A DNA stretch of 64,000 nt, taken from Candidatus Omnitrophota bacterium (lineage in GTDB: Bacteria; Omnitrophota; Gorgyraeia; Zapsychrales; Fredricksoniimonadaceae). Position numbers and translations under genes: made by a program. The stretch spans positions 526 through 64,525 of the forward strand of contig JADFXH010000011.1 of assembly GCA_015233675.1 (NCBI GenBank), written 5' to 3'. Positions 9,686 to 53,335 of this stretch are shown one piece after another (within the stretch, counting starts at the first letter, position 1; the number at the start of each line of letters is the position of its first letter). The notes under the pieces are model-generated. The model was not told where the DNA came from. It did no database searches and saw only the letters and a program-made list of their open reading frames with translations.

Positions 9686-9779
9686 CTCTTTGGAATTATG
9701 AGTGGGTAAACAATACCATGTCATTCCCGCGCAAGCGGGAATCCATCCATTGGACTTACCCATTCAAAACTCCAAAGAG
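9686..9779. mobile_element. MITE-like palindromic element flanked by 12-bp direct repeats
   Basis: CCATAAATTTGG occurs at 9674-9685 and 9780-9791. The arms are 23/26 complementary. The apex is GTCATTCCCGCGCAAGCGGGAATCCA (9720-9745). Confidence 0.55.
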
Positions 9780-14498: not shown

Positions 14499-14597
14499 CA
14501 GACTGTGCCACATGAAGGATCATTTTATAAAAGTGGATTCCCGCTTGCGCGGGAATGACAAAATCTATCATGTCATCCCCGCGAAAGCGGGGATCCA
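14499..14597. repeat. Composite dispersed repeat, copy 1: conserved leader plus two opposed palindromic units
   Basis: cagactgtgccacatgaagg...tggattcccgcttgcgcgggaatgaca...tgtcatccccgcgaaagcggggatcca. Nearly identical to 50829-50945. Confidence 0.8.
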
Positions 14598-15613: not shown

Positions 15614-15937
15614 ATGACAATCTCCTTTAATAATCGAATGGAAACTCGTAATAATTGTTCTGTTCCAGTTGAAAGTAAAAACGATTCATCTTTTGGGCAG
15701 ACACGGACTGTTGACATTAGCCGTCACGGGATTGGTTTTATTTCCCCTTATCCGCATAAGGTCAATGAGAAAGTTGCCATCGGGATTCAACTGAAACCAA
15801 ATAAGGATCCTGTTTTAGTCATCGGTATTGTTAAATGGGTTAACAGCCTTTCTGATTCAAGCGGATACAGGATAGGCATGAGGTATGATGAGAGTTTTTT
15901 AGATTCCCAAAGACGCTTAGAACATTATTTTGAATAG
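15614..15937 (+). CDS. Stand-alone PilZ-domain protein (c-di-GMP receptor)
   Basis: RxxxR (RMETR) followed by DxSxxG (DISRHG), in a ~100-aa protein. Confidence 0.7.
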   Translation: MTISFNNRMETRNNCSVPVESKNDSSFGQTRTVDISRHGIGFISPYPHKVNEKVAIGIQLKPNKDPVLVIGIVKWVNSLSDSSGYRIGMRYDESFLDSQRRLEHYFE

Positions 15938-18059: not shown

Positions 18060-18223
18060 CTTGTTAATTCTTTGTAGCTTCCTACAGGGTTACCATATGC
18101 TTCATTTCTCATAACTCTTTTTAAGTAAACGCTTTCCGAAAAATATTTTAAAAAATCCCTAATATTCCTAACTTTATGGAAAGGCGCCAGTTAAAGAGGT
18201 TTCCCGTCTGTTTTTTATTCTTT

Positions 18224-18252
18224 TTGACGCAAGCTCGACTGGCGAGTTAAAA
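18224..18252 (+). promoter_or_regulatory. Putative sigma-70 promoter of the riboswitch leader
   Basis: TTGACG (18224-29), 17-nt spacer, TTAAAA (18247-52). Confidence 0.4.
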
Positions 18253-18297
18253 AATAATGTGGTATGGTTTGAATAAGTTACAATTTTGAATTTGGAA

Positions 18298-18378
18298 TTG
18301 CAAACTTGAGGAAACTTAAGGGCGCAAAGGATCGAGCCTAAACCCGGCCGTAGGCGGGGCATGGTAGTCGAGCTGCAT
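18298..18378 (+). ncRNA. Candidate c-di-GMP-I (GEMM-I) riboswitch aptamer
   Basis: GCAAAC / UUGAG-GAAA-CUUAA (GNRA hairpin) / GGGCGCAAAGG / GAGCCUAAACC...GUAGGCGGGGC matches the remembered conserved core of the Vc2 aptamer. Confidence 0.6.
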
Positions 18379-18395
18379 AAAGGTTGGATTTTCAG

Positions 18396-18440
18396 CCCAA
18401 ATGTATGCTCGCTAATTTTCGAGTTGCATTTGGGTTTTTT
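18396..18440 (+). terminator. Intrinsic terminator (expression platform) after the aptamer
   Basis: CCCAAATG (18396-403) pairs with CATTTGGG (18427-34), with inner CTCG/CGAG, followed by TTTTTT (18435-40). Confidence 0.75.
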
Positions 18441-18617
18441 AATTTTATGGATCCGGAGGAAATTAAATGATCAAAGTAGCCTGCACGCAACCTAAAGAAA
18501 CACGTAACAAATATTCTACAGCACTAGTGCTGTCAATGTGCAGGCAGGGAAGCGATCATTTTATGATATTTCAATAAATATTTTATTAATTACGAATTTA
18601 ACAAGGAGTATGTCGCT

Positions 18618-20927
18618 ATGAACAAACATAAAGTGCTTTTGAAAATTGCAGTTGGTTTGTTTGTTGTATTGTGCTGTACAGTTTTTCCTTATCAGGCTCA
18701 GGCGCAAACATTATCTAATGCAGTTGTTGTTGCAGAAAATTCGATCAACAATTATTTTGCGGCGTTATTAGCAGGAACTAGTGTGCCGAGTGCGCAAAGT
18801 TTTATGACCACCATAATGCAGTCAGTGACTTCAACAGCAGACCAGCAGACAGTGCAGGCATATTATGAACAGAATGCAGTTAGTACAGCTAAAACACAGA
18901 TAGACAATTACTTCAAAGTGATAATAGCAGGCAATCCTGTGCCGAATGCTCAAAGCTTCATGAGCGCGGTAATGTCGTCAGTCTTGGCAACAGCGGACCA
19001 GCAGACGGTAAATACGTATTATGAACAATCAGCAGTTACGACAGCTGAAATTCAGATAAACAATTACTTCAGTGCGATAATAGCAGGTAATACTGTGCCG
19101 AATGCTCAAACTTTCACGAGCGCAGTCATGGCAGCGGTGCTGGCCCAAGCAGATCAGCAGGCAGTATATACGTATTATGAAAAAACTGCAGTTAGCACAG
19201 CTGAAGGCCAGATAAGCAATTACTTCAGTGTAATATTAAAAGGTACGACTGTTCCGAATGCTCAAAGCTTCATGAGCGCGGTAATGTCATCAGTCTTGGC
19301 AACAGCAGACCAGCAGACAGTGCAGGCATATTATGAACAGAATGCAGTTAGTACAGCTAAAACACAGATAGACAATTACTTCAAAGTGATAATAGCAGGC
19401 AATCCTGTGCCGAATGCTCAAAGCTTCATGAGCGCGGTAATGTCGTCAGTCTTGGCAACAGCGGACCAGCAGACAGTACAAAATTATTTCAATCAGCAAC
19501 AGGTTATCTCCTTATATCAATATGCATTGAAAGTCATCAGCTTCTATAGCGCTACGCCAAACAGTGCTACCCTGACGACGGCTGTTGGGGCAGTAATGCA
19601 GCTTCAGCCATATAATAATGTTGCGGCTTTATCAGGTTTAGGGCTTTATGATGACGCTCTCAACCAGTTAATGCAGGCAGTCAGCAAGAATTTGTCTAAT
19701 ACAAACAACGTTTCTTCGATTATTCCTCCTGCCAACATAGACGGCAGTTTTGGCACATCCGTTGCTGTAGATGGGGTAGGGAATATATTCGTATCTGCGC
19801 CTTCCAATGCTGTTAATGGCAGGGGCATCATTTACGAATTTGGTAAAAACAGTAATAATGTATGGACGGTAATTAACCAAATTTATCCGATGATTCCTGT
19901 GCCCGGAGACCATTTTGGCCGTGTATTTAGCATCAATGGCAATACATTAGCGGCCAGCTCGGAGCCTGCTAATGGCCTGGCCAAGGTGTATATTTTCGGT
20001 CTTCAAAGTAATAAATGGATACAGCAAACCTCTCTGGATTTAACTACTGTGTCTAACTTCAAAGTGGTCCAGAAAATCTCTTTGGCTTCGACTGTTAACA
20101 CAATAGTGGTTGGTTTGCCGCAATTCGGATATTATTTGGTATTTAACCACGTTTTTGATTATTCTACGACTACTAATATGTTAGTCAGTGATCAATGGCG
20201 TTTAATGCTTTCAGGAAGCTTCACCGTTGGTTCTGTTATTAATTCTGTTGCCGCAGATGGCTTGTATATTGTAATAGGGAGCCAAGTTCCCGGCAGTAAT
20301 GGCACCGTCACAGGTTCTGTTCGCATTCTTTCAGGAGCCATAAATGTGGTGCGGATTAATTCGAAAAATGAATATACTATGAACTGGACTATTGATACGA
20401 GTGTATCCGGCCCGAAAGGGTTTGGCCAGTCTGTTGCAATTTATCAAGATCCTGTGCTGGCATTGCCAATAGGAAATCCTGTTGTAAGCATGGTTCCGAT
20501 ACCGGCGGTCAATAAAATTACCCTTGCCATTGGTTCTCCTGTTGAACATAACGGTGCAGGGGCTGTTTATACCATGGTAAAAAGTATTGCTACAGGCACA
20601 AATAGGCTCGTTTGGGCTGGTCTTAATCCTGTCCAGTTAGTTATGCCGTCATTGGCAACAGCCGCTGGACATGGGCTTGCATTAAAAAGGGCTACTCTAT
20701 TGGTATCAGCCAATAGTACAGTTATTGCTCCTTCGATTGTTATGGCATATCAATTTAATGCCGCTACCAATCAATGGTCTTGGGCTTATACAATGAGCAA
20801 TGTTAACTCATTGTTTGGAAGCAGCCTGGCTACTAACGGACAAACGGCAGTCGTTGGCAGTCCTAAGGCTGTTAATGATACGAATACAGCTGATATTAAT
20901 CAGGTACAGGTTATCGGCCTTAAATAG
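18618..20927 (+). CDS. Secreted protein: signal peptide, five 52-aa tandem repeats, C-terminal FG-GAP-like beta-propeller
   Basis: Signal peptide ...PYQAQAQ. Repeats NYFxxIIAGNxVPNAQSFMSAVMSSVLATADQQTV. FG-GAP-like FGTSVAVDG..., FGQSVAI..., FGSSLATNGQTAVVGSP. AAGGAG before the ATG. Confidence 0.85.
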   Translation: MNKHKVLLKIAVGLFVVLCCTVFPYQAQAQTLSNAVVVAENSINNYFAALLAGTSVPSAQSFMTTIMQSVTSTADQQTVQAYYEQNAVSTAKTQIDNYFKVIIAGNPVPNAQSFMSAVMSSVLATADQQTVNTYYEQSAVTTAEIQINNYFSAIIAGNTVPNAQTFTSAVMAAVLAQADQQAVYTYYEKTAVSTAEGQISNYFSVILKGTTVPNAQSFMSAVMSSVLATADQQTVQAYYEQNAVSTAKTQIDNYFKVIIAGNPVPNAQSFMSAVMSSVLATADQQTVQNYFNQQQVISLYQYALKVISFYSATPNSATLTTAVGAVMQLQPYNNVAALSGLGLYDDALNQLMQAVSKNLSNTNNVSSIIPPANIDGSFGTSVAVDGVGNIFVSAPSNAVNGRGIIYEFGKNSNNVWTVINQIYPMIPVPGDHFGRVFSINGNTLAASSEPANGLAKVYIFGLQSNKWIQQTSLDLTTVSNFKVVQKISLASTVNTIVVGLPQFGYYLVFNHVFDYSTTTNMLVSDQWRLMLSGSFTVGSVINSVAADGLYIVIGSQVPGSNGTVTGSVRILSGAINVVRINSKNEYTMNWTIDTSVSGPKGFGQSVAIYQDPVLALPIGNPVVSMVPIPAVNKITLAIGSPVEHNGAGAVYTMVKSIATGTNRLVWAGLNPVQLVMPSLATAAGHGLALKRATLLVSANSTVIAPSIVMAYQFNAATNQWSWAYTMSNVNSLFGSSLATNGQTAVVGSPKAVNDTNTADINQVQVIGLK
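18720..19500 (+). repeat. In-frame 156-bp tandem repeats (about 5 units) inside the CDS
   Basis: Period is 156 bp. 18833-19006 is identical base for base to 19301-19474 (174 bp, offset 468 = 3 units). Confidence 0.9.
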
Positions 20928-21077: not shown

Positions 21078-23587
21078 ATGAAGTCCGACAATAAAAGGAT
21101 GGGGCTGTTTTCTTTTTCCTTTCAAGACTATTTTAAAGTTTTTGTTATCGCGTCGGCCTATTTTTTTGCCCACGAAATTGCATTCTTCTTCCCTGATTCA
21201 CAAAAAGTCATTATGCTCGTTTGGCCGGCCGGCGGGGTTAGTTTGGCCGCGTTTTTGTTGAACCCTCGGCGGCTATGGCCTCTGTTGACATTGGTTTTTT
21301 ATATTTCCGGTATTACGGCAGATCTTGCTATGTCCGGCCGTCCATTGATGATGAGTCTGGGCTTCATGACCGGAAATATGGTTGAATCAATTTGTTGTGC
21401 TTGGCTTATCATTTATTGGTCAAGGGGTTTTCAGAATTTCAATAAGGCCAGGGAAGTGCTGGCACTTATTGTCAGTGCGGTTTTTGTGAATGCGTTCAGT
21501 TCCTGCATCGGCGCTTTAACCTCCATGCTTACCAGCGGAGATTCATTGTTGGGTTCATGGCAAACGTGGTTTATTGCAGACGGTCTTGGTATTCTGCTGG
21601 TTGGGCCGTTTATTGTTGCTTGGAGCAGGGTTAAGGAATTAAAAGAAATTTTATGTTTTAAAAAGATAATAGAAGGGTCAGCTTTTCTAGCAGTCTGGAT
21701 AATTTTTGTCTGGCTTATTTTTCATTCCAACCAATTCGAATTTCACCTTCGTCCTTACATGTTAGTTGCCTTGCTAGCTTGGCCGGCTATACGATTTGGC
21801 CAGCGTGGCGTCACGTTTGCGAATATGCTTGTGTTTGTTATTGCCATCTTTAGTCCAATGATTATTAGTGGGCCCGCTCCTTGGGTGTGGCATGGGCAAA
21901 GTTCAGATTTAGCCGGCCGTTTAATGGATTTACAAATATTCCTGGGGTTTATGTCGGTCGTAGGTTATCTGCTGGCAGCCATTTATGCTGATTTTATATT
22001 GGCGTCGTCTCAAAGGGAAGAGGCACTCGATGATCTCAAAAAAAGCCGGCAGCTTTTAGAAAGTGTGGTTGAAGGAACGCAGGATGCGGTTTTTGTGAAA
22101 GATTTTAAAGGACGGTATCTTCTTATTAATAGTGCGGCTTGTCAGGCTACTGGCAAGAATGCCAGCGAAATTTTGGGGCAGGATGACACTTTTATTTTTC
22201 CTGCCGATCATGCCCGGCTTTTGATGGAGCGCGACCGTCAGGTGCTGGACAATAAAAAGATTATTACTTTTGAATATGACTTAGTCAATTTGAATGGGAA
22301 CAAGCGGTCAGTCCATTCCCTTAAAGGCCCATTGTTTGATAAAGACGGTCAGGTGATGGGGCTGTTTGGCATTAGCCGTGACATTACCGAGCGCAAGCAG
22401 GTCCACCAACAGTTGGTAGATACGATCAATTATATGCAAACCTTTATTTCTACTTCGCCGATCGCCATCATTACATACAAGGCATCAGGACAGGCTGTCT
22501 CGGCAAATACAGCAGCCGCGAAGCTGGTGGGGACTTCAATTGAGAATTTAATGAAACAGAATTTTCGTAACTTGGATTCCTGGAAAAGAGATGGATTTCT
22601 CGATAAGGCCCAAAAAGCTTTGGATACCGGGCAGGAACAATTGCTGGAATGCTATACCGTGAGCAGTTTTGGGGCCGCATTTTGGATTTCTTGCCGGTTT
22701 GTCCCGTTTAACTATACAGCCCAGCCGCATTTGTTGTTTTTGGCAACGGATATCAGCGATAAGAAACAGGCGGAAAAATACGCACTTGAAATAACTGCCG
22801 AAAAAGCAGCTGCCAAAACAGCACAGAAGAAGGCGGTTGAAATTGCAGCGGCGTATCAGGAATTACAAAAAGCCCGGGATTTATTAACCCAGTCTGAGAA
22901 ACTATCCGCTATAGGAGTCCTGGTCGCCGGAATAGCGCATGAGTTAAACAGTCCCCTTTCAGGGATCTTGGGGATTGTCAGGTTTTATTTGGAACATAAA
23001 AATCCTGACGACAGGGAGTATCGGGATCTCGAACAAGTATTGAAAGCCGCAGAACGCATGTCAAAAATCGTTCAAGGCCTTCGGGATTTCTCAAGGCCTT
23101 CGGTAAAAGAGGAAGAAGAATTGAATTTTAACTCAATGATCGAATCAGTGCTTAGTTTCGGTCAAAAAATAATGATCGGGCCCAATATAGATTTACATAA
23201 GAATTTCGAGAAAGATCTTCCTATGATCAAAGGGGATAAAAATCAGGTTCAGCAGATCATTATTAATTTAATGTCTAATGCCACAGATGCCATGCAAAAA
23301 AAGGTACGCTAAAAATATTTACCCGGACTGTTGTAGTCAATGAAAACCGTTTTGTTGAAATGGAGTTTGTGGATAGCGGGTGTGGTATAAAAAAAGAAGA
23401 TTTATCCAAAATTTTTGATCCTTTCTTTTCGACCAAAAGGCAGGGAGAAGGTACAGGGCTTGGTCTTTCCGTGGTTTATTCAATAATAAAAGAGCATAAC
23501 GGGGAAATTCTGGTTGAAAGTCCGCCGATGGGCCAAGAAAAAGGGGCATCATTCAAGGTCAGGATGCCGGCTATATCAGGAGGGTAA
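21078..23587 (+). CDS. Sensor histidine kinase (MASE1-PAS-PAS-HisKA-HATPase_c) that needs a -1 frame change at 23297-23303
   Basis: ORF 21078-23312 ends inside the N-box (NLMSNATDAMQKKVR*). The -1 frame continues GTLKIFTRTVVVNENRFVEMEFVDSGCGI...GTGLGLSVV to 23587. Confidence 0.8.
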
Positions 23588-23995: not shown

Positions 23996-24026
23996 ATTAT
24001 GTCATCCCCGCGAAAGCGGGGATCCA
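23996..24026. repeat. TGTCATCCCCGCGAAAGCGGGGATCCA palindromic unit, solo copy
   Basis: Same unit as at 14571-14597 and 50919-50945. Confidence 0.8.
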
Positions 24027-50828: not shown

Positions 50829-50945
50829 CAGACTGTGCCACATGAAGGGTCAGTTTGTAATAGTGGATTCCCGCTTGCGCGGGAATGACAAACTTCTAAT
50901 AAATGACAAAATCTATTATGTCATCCCCGCGAAAGCGGGGATCCA
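50829..50945. repeat. Composite dispersed repeat, copy 2
   Basis: Same leader and both palindromic units as 14499-14597, with an 18-bp internal insertion (aacttctaataaatgaca). Confidence 0.8.
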
Positions 50946-51931: not shown

Positions 51932-53335
51932 ATGTGCGCTTATTTTGCAGGTGATCCGGAGCTTAATTTACTCAATCCGGAATCGCAGAAAATATTCCGG
52001 GATCTTATTGAGAATATAAAAGTGGGCGTTTTTATGGCTGATTCCCACAGTAACCTTTTTTATGTCAACCATGCTTTTAATGAAACATTTAATTTTCCGA
52101 ATCATAACCATGCCACTGGTAAGAATTGGATAGCCCTTCTTTTTCCCGACCCTAAAATTTGTGCTGATTTTCAGGCTAAATTCCAATTAAATGGCTTTGT
52201 GATAGATTTTGAAACTACATGTGTGAACTCTTCAGGTCAAAAGTATTCGCTGATGGTCACCGTCAATCATATCTATAATGATAAGGGGAGCATCATTGGA
52301 GTCCGCGGTGTTACCGTAGACATATCTGAACACCATAAATTAGAAGAACAATTGAGCATCAGACAGCAAAAGCTTGAAAAAATCCTCGATTTTTATAATA
52401 GATTGAGCGACATAATGGTATTGCATGAGCTAAACGACTCCATTGTTCAGCAAGTTGCCCAAATTTTAGGAGCCGGGCGTTGTTCGATCATGTATATCAA
52501 CTCTTCAGGAGACGAGCTTTCTATAAAGGCTTCCTATGGGATTAGTGAAGAATTTGTGCGTGATTCCAGCGTTAAAATCGGAACTCCTGTTGCCGGGCTC
52601 ATTGCTCTTAAAAGCCAGTCCATCATTGTTGATAATATTGAATATCATGAACAATTCAAACGACAAAATAGAAAAAGTTATTCCTCACGTTCTTTTATGA
52701 GCGCTCCTCTTATGTATAATCAAAAGCTAATCGGCATAATTAACGTTTCCGAAAGACAGGGGCCTTTCACACCAACGGATTTAAAAGTATTAGAAACCAT
52801 TGCCAAACAGGCAGCTATTAATATTTGTAAGCTTCAACTTTTGAACAATTTTGAATACTTATCCCAGACAGATTCCATGACAGGGCTTTACAATTATCGT
52901 GCTTTTATCCAAAAATTGGAAGAAGAGATATCGCGGTTTTCCCGCTACGGACATGAATTCAGTTTAATGATGGTAGACGTGGATAATTTTAAAACATTTA
53001 ATGACCAGTACGGACATATGAGCGGAGATAAGCTCCTAAAGAGATTAGCTGATATGTTTAAGAATAATTTACGTTCATTTGAGCATGTCTGTCGTTATGG
53101 AGGGGACGAGTTTGCTATTATTTTACCTAATACGGACAGTTCCAAGTCTGCCATTGTGGGAGAAAAGCTTTGTGATAAAGTCAGGAAGGAATTCGCGCAG
53201 GATAAAATTTCTTTAAGTATCGGCGTGGCAGAATTTCAGGCCAACTCCAATAAAGAAACTCTAATACAACAAGCTGATCAAGCGTTATATCAAGCCAAAG
53301 AATCCGGAAGAAACACAGTCCGCATTTTTAAATGA
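51932..53335 (+). CDS. PAS-GAF-GGDEF diguanylate cyclase
   Basis: RYGGDEFAIILP active-site motif, preceded by GAF (GRCSIMYI...) and PAS. Confidence 0.9.
   Translation: MCAYFAGDPELNLLNPESQKIFRDLIENIKVGVFMADSHSNLFYVNHAFNETFNFPNHNHATGKNWIALLFPDPKICADFQAKFQLNGFVIDFETTCVNSSGQKYSLMVTVNHIYNDKGSIIGVRGVTVDISEHHKLEEQLSIRQQKLEKILDFYNRLSDIMVLHELNDSIVQQVAQILGAGRCSIMYINSSGDELSIKASYGISEEFVRDSSVKIGTPVAGLIALKSQSIIVDNIEYHEQFKRQNRKSYSSRSFMSAPLMYNQKLIGIINVSERQGPFTPTDLKVLETIAKQAAINICKLQLLNNFEYLSQTDSMTGLYNYRAFIQKLEEEISRFSRYGHEFSLMMVDVDNFKTFNDQYGHMSGDKLLKRLADMFKNNLRSFEHVCRYGGDEFAIILPNTDSSKSAIVGEKLCDKVRKEFAQDKISLSIGVAEFQANSNKETLIQQADQALYQAKESGRNTVRIFK

Follow-up and report, generated by a model that had tools for sequence, protein, structure and literature searches.

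The stretch of DNA analysed here, referred to below as the window, comprises 64,000 nucleotides (nt; 64 kb) of a Candidatus Omnitrophota bacterium, and the subject of this study is the leader RNA that precedes a gene for a secreted protein of 769 amino acid (aa) residues at 18618-20927. This leader holds an aptamer of the GEMM-I family, whose ligand is the dinucleotide c-di-GMP (cyclic di-GMP), followed by an intrinsic terminator. We consider it probable, though well short of certain, that the two constitute a riboswitch acting at the level of transcription termination, that its ligand is c-di-GMP and that ligand binding turns the downstream helical-repeat/FG-GAP propeller gene off. The features of the locus are given below, one per line; positions 20, 44, 47, 83 and 92 follow the numbering of the Vibrio cholerae aptamer Vc2, P1 and P3 are helices of that aptamer fold, and the model is that of the Rfam family RF01051.

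18240-18268 (+): likely promoter, with -35 element TGGCGA (18240-45), 17-nt spacer and extended -10 element TGgTATGGT (18260-68)
18289-18380 (+): GEMM-I (c-di-GMP-I family) aptamer, RF01051, its fold independently recovered by RNAalifold
18295-18299 (+): weakly supported candidate for the 5' strand of a short closing helix, with partner 18381-85
U18299 (+): equivalent of Vc2 G20, here U, a non-canonical pocket base aligned to an upper-case G at model position 11
G18300-C18325 and C18301-G18324 (+): closing pairs of the first arm, from the Rfam alignment and the 34-sequence alignment
18300-18325 (+): first arm, with helix 18305-10/18315-20, which covaries (CG/AU/GC/UA types), and GAAA tetraloop 18311-14
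C18323 (+): C44 equivalent, mapped from the Rfam and 34-leader alignments
A18326 (+): A47 equivalent, which intercalates between the two ligand bases, within CGCAAAG
18329-18374 (+): second arm (P3), which alone folds at -16.8 kcal/mol
18329-38/18363-74 (+): base helix of P3, with an AG bulge at 18366-67
18337-42/18360-64 (+): tetraloop receptor, CCUAAA/CAUGG, in the receptor columns of the model
18343-49/18353-59 (+): distal helix of P3, with strong covariation
G18367 (+): G83 equivalent, in the AG bulge, placed by its column of the model
C18376 (+): C92 equivalent, Watson-Crick partner of the G-beta base of the ligand, kept in 29 of 34 leaders
18369-18411 (+): predicted antiterminator hairpin, made up of an outer helix, 18369-78/18401-11 with a bulged U18406, and an inner helix, 18382-87/18392-97
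18394-18440 (+): intrinsic terminator, its stem (18394-18436) having 17 pairs and a single bulge, with U-run 18435-40 (six U)
18465-18561 (+): nested inverted repeat in the spacer (-26 kcal/mol, z = -2.5), single copy in the window
18618-20927 (+): regulated gene, encoding a 769-aa secreted protein with signal-peptide-like N terminus, helical repeats and C-terminal FG-GAP-type beta-propeller

When the whole window was scanned with cmscan against all 4227 Rfam families, four matches reached the gathering score, namely three tRNAs and RF01051 (c-di-GMP-I), the latter at 18289-18380 (+) with 52.3 bits (gathering score 35; E 2.3e-7) and with the full model covered (positions 1-87 of 87). A permissive re-scan of 18100-18700 repeated this match and reported two lower-scoring matches of the same clan; weak matches to LOOT and to a snoRNA, far under their gathering scores, were disregarded, and the control family RF01786 (c-di-GMP-II) was unmatched in this interval even at E<=10. 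The region 18289-18380 is a genuine GEMM-I/RF01051 family aptamer, as had been proposed in an earlier sequence-only reading of this DNA.

The elements on which that reading was built are all present (GCAAAC at 18300-05, UUGAG-GAAA-CUUAA at 18306-19, GGGCGCAAAGG at 18320-30 and GAGCCUAAACCCGGCCGUAGGCGGGGC at 18334-60), but its 3' half was registered one helix early: GUAGGCGGGG had been aligned to GGUAGGUAGCGGGG of Vc2, the true counterpart of which is GCAUGGUAGUCGAGCU (18359-74), and GUAGGCGGGGC, taken for the Vc2-equivalent block, is the variable tip of P3. Because of this register GCGGGG had been listed as a conserved block beside GCAAA and CGCAAAG; the latter two are indeed kept in homologous leaders, and together with the RF01051 match this means that the reading survives the refuting conditions that it had set itself. 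The third block actually conserved is GGYAGUCGAGCUGC. The unusually short P3 that had been noted is an artefact of the same shift, P3 being of normal length, and the receptor partner of CCUAAA is CAUGG rather than GUAGG.

The roles of G20, A47, C92 and the C44-G83 pair were assigned according to PMC5888326, PMC4744006 and PMC11705072. C18323 and G18367 fall in matching model columns and are predicted to form the interhelical C44-G83 Watson-Crick pair, described as 'universally conserved' (PMC4744006), while the GNRA tetraloop of the first arm and its receptor in the second arm, both present by alignment, are predicted to dock. An A-G mismatch is present in lower P3.

These assignments were supported by an alignment of 34 leaders, comprising that of the window and 33 relatives. 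Two of the latter, L001 and L002, carry an RF01051 match at the same upstream position as in the window, and 31 others were obtained through pattern scans of genome and metagenome contigs in which position 20 was left free and from which chance hits and duplicates were removed; the sources were mostly Omnitrophota or metagenome-assembled genomes (MAGs) labelled 'Planctomycetales'. All 33 relatives exceed the RF01051 gathering score (41.8-63.4 bits). Unguided RNAalifold analysis of the 34 aptamers recovered the GEMM-I fold with both arms, and compensatory changes were seen in 12 of 23 pairs. CGCAAAG is invariant in 34/34 leaders; part of this invariance (CGCAAAGGAUCGNGCCUAAA) was imposed by the search pattern, and the covariation evidence is that of the unconstrained helices.

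The intrinsic terminator that had been placed at 18396-18440 is borne out by a hairpin at 18394-18436 of -21.6 kcal/mol (z = -6.6, 200 shuffles) followed by a U-run, which a simple terminator pattern scan missed because of its 8-nt loop and bulge. Hairpin and U-run recur in 32/34 leaders, starting 19-42 nt after C92, and the stem shows a compensatory change (CCCAAAUG/CAUUUGGG versus CCCGAAUG/CAUUCGGG).

The aptamer 3' strand, UCGAGCUGCAU, is near-identical to the terminator 3' strand, UCGAGUUGCAU, and as a consequence both can pair with the terminator 5' strand, AUGUAUGCUCG. The resulting antiterminator hairpin, whose strand 18369-78 includes the ligand-pairing C92 equivalent, is predicted to fold alone at -17.5 kcal/mol and is contained in the unconstrained minimum free energy (MFE) structure when the transcript ends at 18412 or at 18420-28. 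A helix able to compete with the terminator had been suggested between GCATA (18375-79) and TATGC (18404-08), both of which are present; such a helix does exist, but in another register and at twice the length (18369-78/18401-11), and the GCAUA/UAUGC register is broken in L002, L026, L029 and L041, where the terminator strand reads UAAGC. Across the family, the duplex between the aptamer 3' strand and the terminator 5' half has a mean of -11.0 kcal/mol versus -6.2 kcal/mol for shuffles (p<=0.05 in 17/32 leaders), and matched changes on its two strands occur in L038 (UCGAACUGCAUC/GAUGCAGUUUGA, 13 base pairs, bp) and in L032. The antiterminator was found in the MFE structure of truncated transcripts for 23/32 leaders and the terminator in that of full-length transcripts for 29/32. 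By these predictions the leader would contain a mutually exclusive helix with one strand drawn from the aptamer and one from the terminator. A long-range pairing of AUUUGG (18290-95) with CCAAAU (18397-402) was also considered and dropped, as it is not conserved in L002 and L041.

Stepwise folding of the window leader gave the aptamer as the MFE structure when the transcript ended at 18376; with ends at 18420-28 the free RNA held all 10 antiterminator pairs, and from 18432 onwards the terminator prevailed. When the aptamer was locked in the folding, the antiterminator never formed and the terminator zipped up.

As regards transcription of the leader, the motifs TTGACG (18224-29) and TTAAAA (18247-52) are present, but the promoter that the sequence-only reading had built from them at a 17-nt spacing has a poor -10 element, did not come up in a pattern scan and is not conserved in the relatives. 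The promoter at 18240-18268 is the likelier one, since the pattern TTGNNN/~17 nt/TGnTAnnnT is common to the relatives' upstream regions, and transcription is predicted to start near 18275.

On this basis, the leader would be transcribed from the promoter at approximately 18240-68, and the completed aptamer would either capture its ligand, most likely c-di-GMP, or stay free. Binding would lock the second arm (18329-74) together with C18376 and leave strand 18369-78 unavailable, such that the terminator at 18394-18436 could form and transcription would end at the U-run. In the free RNA, 18369-78 would pair with 18401-11 while the terminator 5' strand emerges, and the antiterminator (18369-18411) would compete with the terminator, allowing more polymerases to enter the gene. 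As the antiterminator consumes the 3' strand of the second arm together with C92, a ligand-locked aptamer should favour termination, and the structure therefore points to an OFF switch, in which the signal turns the gene down; that binding causes termination we infer from this folding model.

The regulated gene had been described as encoding a secreted tandem-repeat or FG-GAP-like protein, which agrees with its signal-peptide-like N terminus, with a tandem repeat at 18769-19480 (156 bp, 4.6 copies, corresponding to five 52-aa helical repeats in the protein) and with an FG-GAP_2 Pfam match (E 3e-9). In the AlphaFold model of the 769-aa protein (predicted local distance difference test score, pLDDT, 76.6), residues 34-362 form a helical repeat stalk and residues 365-769 are all-beta, and the top PDB matches are integrin alpha-4 beta-propellers (E ~1e-7). 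An adhesin role is plausible for such a protein. It is 100% identical to NCBI HQL12_07910 of a Candidatus Omnitrophica MAG and has just four detectable homologues; two of these (59% and 34% identical) have the same leader upstream (L001 and L002). Upstream of the homologues P0004 and P0005 (L003-L006) the riboswitch is absent, which shows that not every member of the gene family is linked to one.

The spacer from terminator to start codon measures 186 nt, compared with gaps of 3-96 nt in all but one of the other leaders, and holds the nested inverted repeat listed above. An open reading frame (ORF) of 36 codons lies within the latter (18467-18577, with GGAGG upstream); it is probably not a gene, given that it has no Pfam match, lies inside the inverted repeat and, like the inverted-repeat spacer itself, is missing from L001 and L002.

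The base at position 20 requires particular attention. In Vc2, G20 contacts the G-alpha base of the ligand (contacts per PMC5888326, PMC4744006 and PMC11705072). At this position 16 of the 34 leaders have G, 7 have U, 7 have C and 4 have A; the 14 leaders with U or C (the window and 13 relatives) form two stable clades and score 42-59 bits, well over the gathering score. U18299 is neither the G of the Vc2-like c-di-GMP subclass nor the A that marks GEMM-Ib at the equivalent position. Since G20 is reported to be less conserved than A47, which is conserved in all class I members (PMC9049102), the non-G20 base matters for ligand and affinity, and not for whether the RNA belongs to the motif family. 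As a baseline for the rarity of a pyrimidine at this position, viral contigs were searched with the pattern GCAAA-N(10-22)-GACGCAAAG, which gave chance matches only, and our own covariance model found zero hits among the 80 viral-contig pattern loci.

Some relatives vary at the pocket in other ways. At L043:2246-2362 (-), position 20 is A and position 92 is U (GCUAU; RF01051 45.7 bits), a naturally occurring equivalent of the double mutant G20A/C92U of Vc2, which is reported to prefer c-di-AMP (cyclic di-AMP; PMC9049102). At L037:3594-3684 (-), position 20 is C and C92 is lacking (GCUAA; 47.8 bits). In a subgroup comprising L007, L008, L010, L012, L014 and L021, position 20 is always G and the tail reads UGA(C/A)GGU; a TTGACA-17-TGnCATACT promoter stands 6-14 nt upstream of the aptamer, and the leaders precede small prepilin-type genes (xGFTLxEV...). 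Type IV pilin-like genes therefore appear to be under c-di-GMP control in these genomes. At L007:5893-6089, on a contig shared with a related riboswitch, lies a group I intron (RF00028, 61.8 bits).

Several observations weigh against a c-di-GMP-responsive OFF switch. Placing uracil at G20 of Vc2 'significantly disrupts ligand binding' (bioRxiv 10.1101/617340), and mutation of G20 is cited as costing 30,000-fold in affinity (PMC4744006); binding of c-di-GMP by the window RNA is consequently presumptive. No canonical P1 was found, by eye or by clade-level RNAalifold, between the predicted start site and the terminator, and support for a shorter helix in its place is weak. The estimated barrier from antiterminator to terminator is low (~3.5 kcal/mol), the full-length MFE structure always contains the terminator, and it also contains a further alternative pairing, 18328-39/18381-92, that lies outside the proposed model, so neither the size of the ligand effect nor the dynamic range is predictable. 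Whether ligand-free RNA would be read through efficiently likewise cannot be computed from such models. Finally, one might expect c-di-GMP to switch on an adhesin-like surface gene, as is the case for Bc2 and cap (PMC4933901). The 18328-39/18381-92 pairing, between the second-arm 5' strand and the linker, also appears in the consensus of the U-20 clade and does not exclude the terminator.

In G20 leaders of the pilin type, the conserved promoter is so near the aptamer that the 5' strand of a P1 hardly fits. Among the U/C-20 leaders, pairing is possible between the five bases that precede GCAAAC and bases 5-9 beyond C92, which in Vc2 numbering corresponds to a shifted 5-bp helix of 16-20 with 97-101 and in the window to the pairs U18299-A18381, U18298-G18382, A18296-U18384 and G18295-U18385. 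This register was the best of seven, with 70.8% of cells paired versus 66.1% in shuffles, in two clades only, and its innermost pair, 20-97, takes the form U-A in 7 sequences and C-G in 5. The alignment is at most suggestive of a short closing helix in the U/C-20 leaders; if it forms, position 20 would be a helix base and not a ligand contact.

As for the ligand, nearly all genes downstream of the leaders encode signal-peptide proteins or prepilins, and homologous genes stand behind leaders that differ at position 20. The proteins downstream of the window leader (U) and L001 (C) share 57% identity over 574 aa, and those of L015 (A) and L024 (G) 66% over 333 aa. For L023 (G) and L043 (A) the figure is 37% across 569 aa, and there are weaker links between C- and G-type leaders. 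Known specificity variants, in contrast, control other types of genes (PMC7266159), and c-di-GMP accordingly remains the likeliest ligand. Mutations of G20 and C92 in Vc2 have a minimal effect on the on-rate and mainly raise the off-rate (bioRxiv 10.1101/617340), and it is mostly the on-rate on which a kinetic transcriptional switch depends. We take U20 and the apparent lack of a canonical P1 to result in weaker, faster-off binding of c-di-GMP rather than in a new ligand, and c-di-GMP, sensed with lower affinity, is most likely the signal. Also in favour of this ligand, the window encodes two proteins with domains related to the messenger:

15614-15937: stand-alone PilZ-domain protein, 2.3 kb upstream of the switch
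51932-53335: PAS-GAF-GGDEF diguanylate cyclase with canonical Asp (GHMSGD) and intact GGDEF, 33 kb downstream of the switch

EAL and HD-GYP domains were not seen among the window ORFs scanned.

The competing explanation that deserves most consideration, which we nevertheless regard as rather unlikely, is that the U/C-20 subgroup retains the GEMM-I scaffold with a changed or broadened ligand (3',3'-cGAMP, made up of GMP and AMP, or another cyclic or linear dinucleotide with one G) or with a pocket rebuilt in part, where 97 would pair with position 20 and a purine of the 3' junction A-U-R-A (18377-80) would replace G20. The presence of U at a ligand contact where the model has a strongly conserved G, the retention of U or C in 14/34 leaders of two stable clades and the damage done by G20U to c-di-GMP binding in Vc2 (10.1101/617340; PMC4744006) all speak for it, as do the distribution of the 20-97 pair and the conserved A-U-R-A tail. 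There is also precedent, in that G20A alone re-targets the aptamer to cGAMP (PMC6140456; PMC7266159), and Rfam includes the pocket-variant families c-di-GMP-I-GGC and -UAU (PMC12452182). Set against this are the homologous genes found behind G-, A-, C- and U-20 versions, unlike the situation in validated variants, the unchanged C92, A47 and C44-G83, and the sole cyclase in the window, which is a canonical Asp-type GGDEF enzyme. Furthermore, U and C differ in their hydrogen-bonding faces and a shared new contact is not obvious, RF01051 outscored the two same-clan matches, presumably variant models, and the signal for the closing helix is weak and confined to two clades. It is conceivable, at similarly modest odds, that the U/C-20 leaders represent a distinct GEMM-I sub-class with a re-wired pocket, in which position 20 would have lost its ligand contact and may pair with 97 while the junction C-A-U-R-A provides a contact instead, having an altered ligand preference (for instance for cGAMP or a different dinucleotide with G) or a markedly shifted c-di-GMP threshold; Omnitrophota would then use this sub-class alongside canonical G20 switches on pilin genes.

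Opposite logic, whereby the ligand promotes read-through, would suit an adhesin-like gene at high c-di-GMP, as c-di-GMP commonly induces adhesins and Bc2, before a collagen-adhesion protein, relieves repression (PMC4933901); the strong terminator that forms ligand-free in the full-length MFE structure would likewise fit a default-off leader. Yet the terminator (18394-18436) and the aptamer do not overlap, and no direct block is possible; the sole conserved helix in competition with the terminator draws on the aptamer 3' strand with C92, which is sequestered when ligand is bound, the terminator forms unopposed once the aptamer is locked, and in the clade consensus folds the 5' leader shows no conserved pairing by which the terminator might be covered. 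We accordingly hold an ON switch to be improbable. Still less credible, and in our estimation very unlikely, is a decayed aptamer that binds no ligand and leaves a constitutive or protein- or nucleoside triphosphate-sensitive attenuator: the loss of the G20 contact, the apparent lack of a canonical P1 and a strong terminator formed by default are compatible with decay, but all other pocket and tertiary-contact nucleotides are retained, scores lie at 42-59 bits, well over the gathering score, and U/C-20 is kept in 14 leaders with compensatory changes in arms, terminator and antiterminator, which indicates purifying selection on the switch. A chance resemblance to the GEMM-I consensus devoid of RNA function has nothing to recommend it beyond the AU-rich context and is already refuted by the E value of 2.3e-7 (whole window, 4227 families) and by conservation and covariation in the 33 other leaders; its probability is negligible. 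A c-di-GMP-responsive OFF switch thus remains the reading that we prefer.

Other elements of the window were recorded in passing. A repetitive extragenic palindromic (REP)-like element (GTCATCCCCGCGAAAGCGGGGATCCA and a variant) occurs in six intergenic copies, with none expected by chance (9720-9745, 14534-14559 (-), 14572-14597, 24001-24026, 50864-50889 (-) and 50920-50945); it creates spurious ORFs with 'VIPAKAGIQ', and two copies happen to bracket a 9.4-kb segment that holds the riboswitch. A MASE1-PAS-HisKA sensor kinase ORF (21078-23312) ends before its ATPase domain, the C-terminal motifs of which are found in a separate ORF of 75 codons (23360-23587); the split kinase (21078-23587) may be frameshifted, a pseudogene or the product of faulty assembly.

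The findings place RNA switches of the c-di-GMP type in Omnitrophota, a phylum that has been little studied and is known almost wholly from metagenomes, and a literature search found no papers on riboswitches in this phylum. With a regulon made up almost entirely of secreted proteins and prepilins, second-messenger signalling would be tied to the cell surface. The family moreover represents a natural experiment on the binding pocket, in which G, A, C and U each occur at a ligand contact of otherwise near-identical switches that precede homologous genes; the affinities and termination responses of its members would show how much the G20 contact weighs in a kinetic switch and could reveal a new specificity.

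Comparison with known systems begins with Vc2, the Vibrio cholerae tfoY leader (PDB 3IRW), with which the window RNA shares the two-arm fold, the predicted docking of GNRA tetraloop and receptor, A47, C92, C44-G83 and RF01051 membership. It differs from Vc2 in having U in place of G20, in apparently being without a P1a that ends in a 14-93 pair, in a pyrimidine-rich 5' junction strand that may pair 5 nt downstream of C92, in the A-G mismatch of lower P3 and in its expression platform, predicted to combine an intrinsic terminator and an antiterminator that uses the 3' strand of P3. Closer in function are terminator-type OFF switches such as Cd1 of the Clostridioides difficile flgB leader, reportedly described by Sudarsan et al. 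2008 as a transcription-terminating GEMM-I OFF switch. In Cd1, a GEMM-I aptamer is followed by an intrinsic terminator and ligand raises premature termination, the logic that we propose for the window; Cd1 has the canonical G20 and controls flagellar genes, whereas the window switch precedes the gene for a secreted propeller protein, its OFF logic being deduced from structure. Natural GEMM-I relatives with an altered pocket also exist in the families c-di-GMP-I-UAU and -GGC, reportedly originating from Weinberg et al. 2017 PNAS. The three letters of these names presumably denote positions 20/47/92, such that 'UAU' would have U20. If the letters are so read, the window pocket would be U-A-C, retaining C92, unlike 'UAU'. 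Both families are Rfam entries (PMC12452182) and resemble the window RNA in their altered pocket. In the GEMM-Ib riboswitches of Geobacter (Gs1761, PDB 4YAZ), the same scaffold has its specificity determined at A14, the position-20 equivalent, with C pairing G-beta (PMC6140456); GEMM-Ib carries A at position 20 before exoelectrogenesis genes, whereas the window has U (C in its sisters) and a gene set in common with G20 relatives. Bc2 of Bacillus thuringiensis cap (PMC4933901) is alike in being a GEMM-I riboswitch that acts through transcription termination on a secreted or surface adhesion-type protein, yet Bc2 relieves repression with c-di-GMP (ON), while the architecture of the window points to OFF. 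In score, fold, contacts and type of platform, the window switch is a member of a known family, and it departs from Vc2 in its U20, in the apparent absence of a canonical P1 and in the use of the second-arm 3' strand as antiterminator strand.

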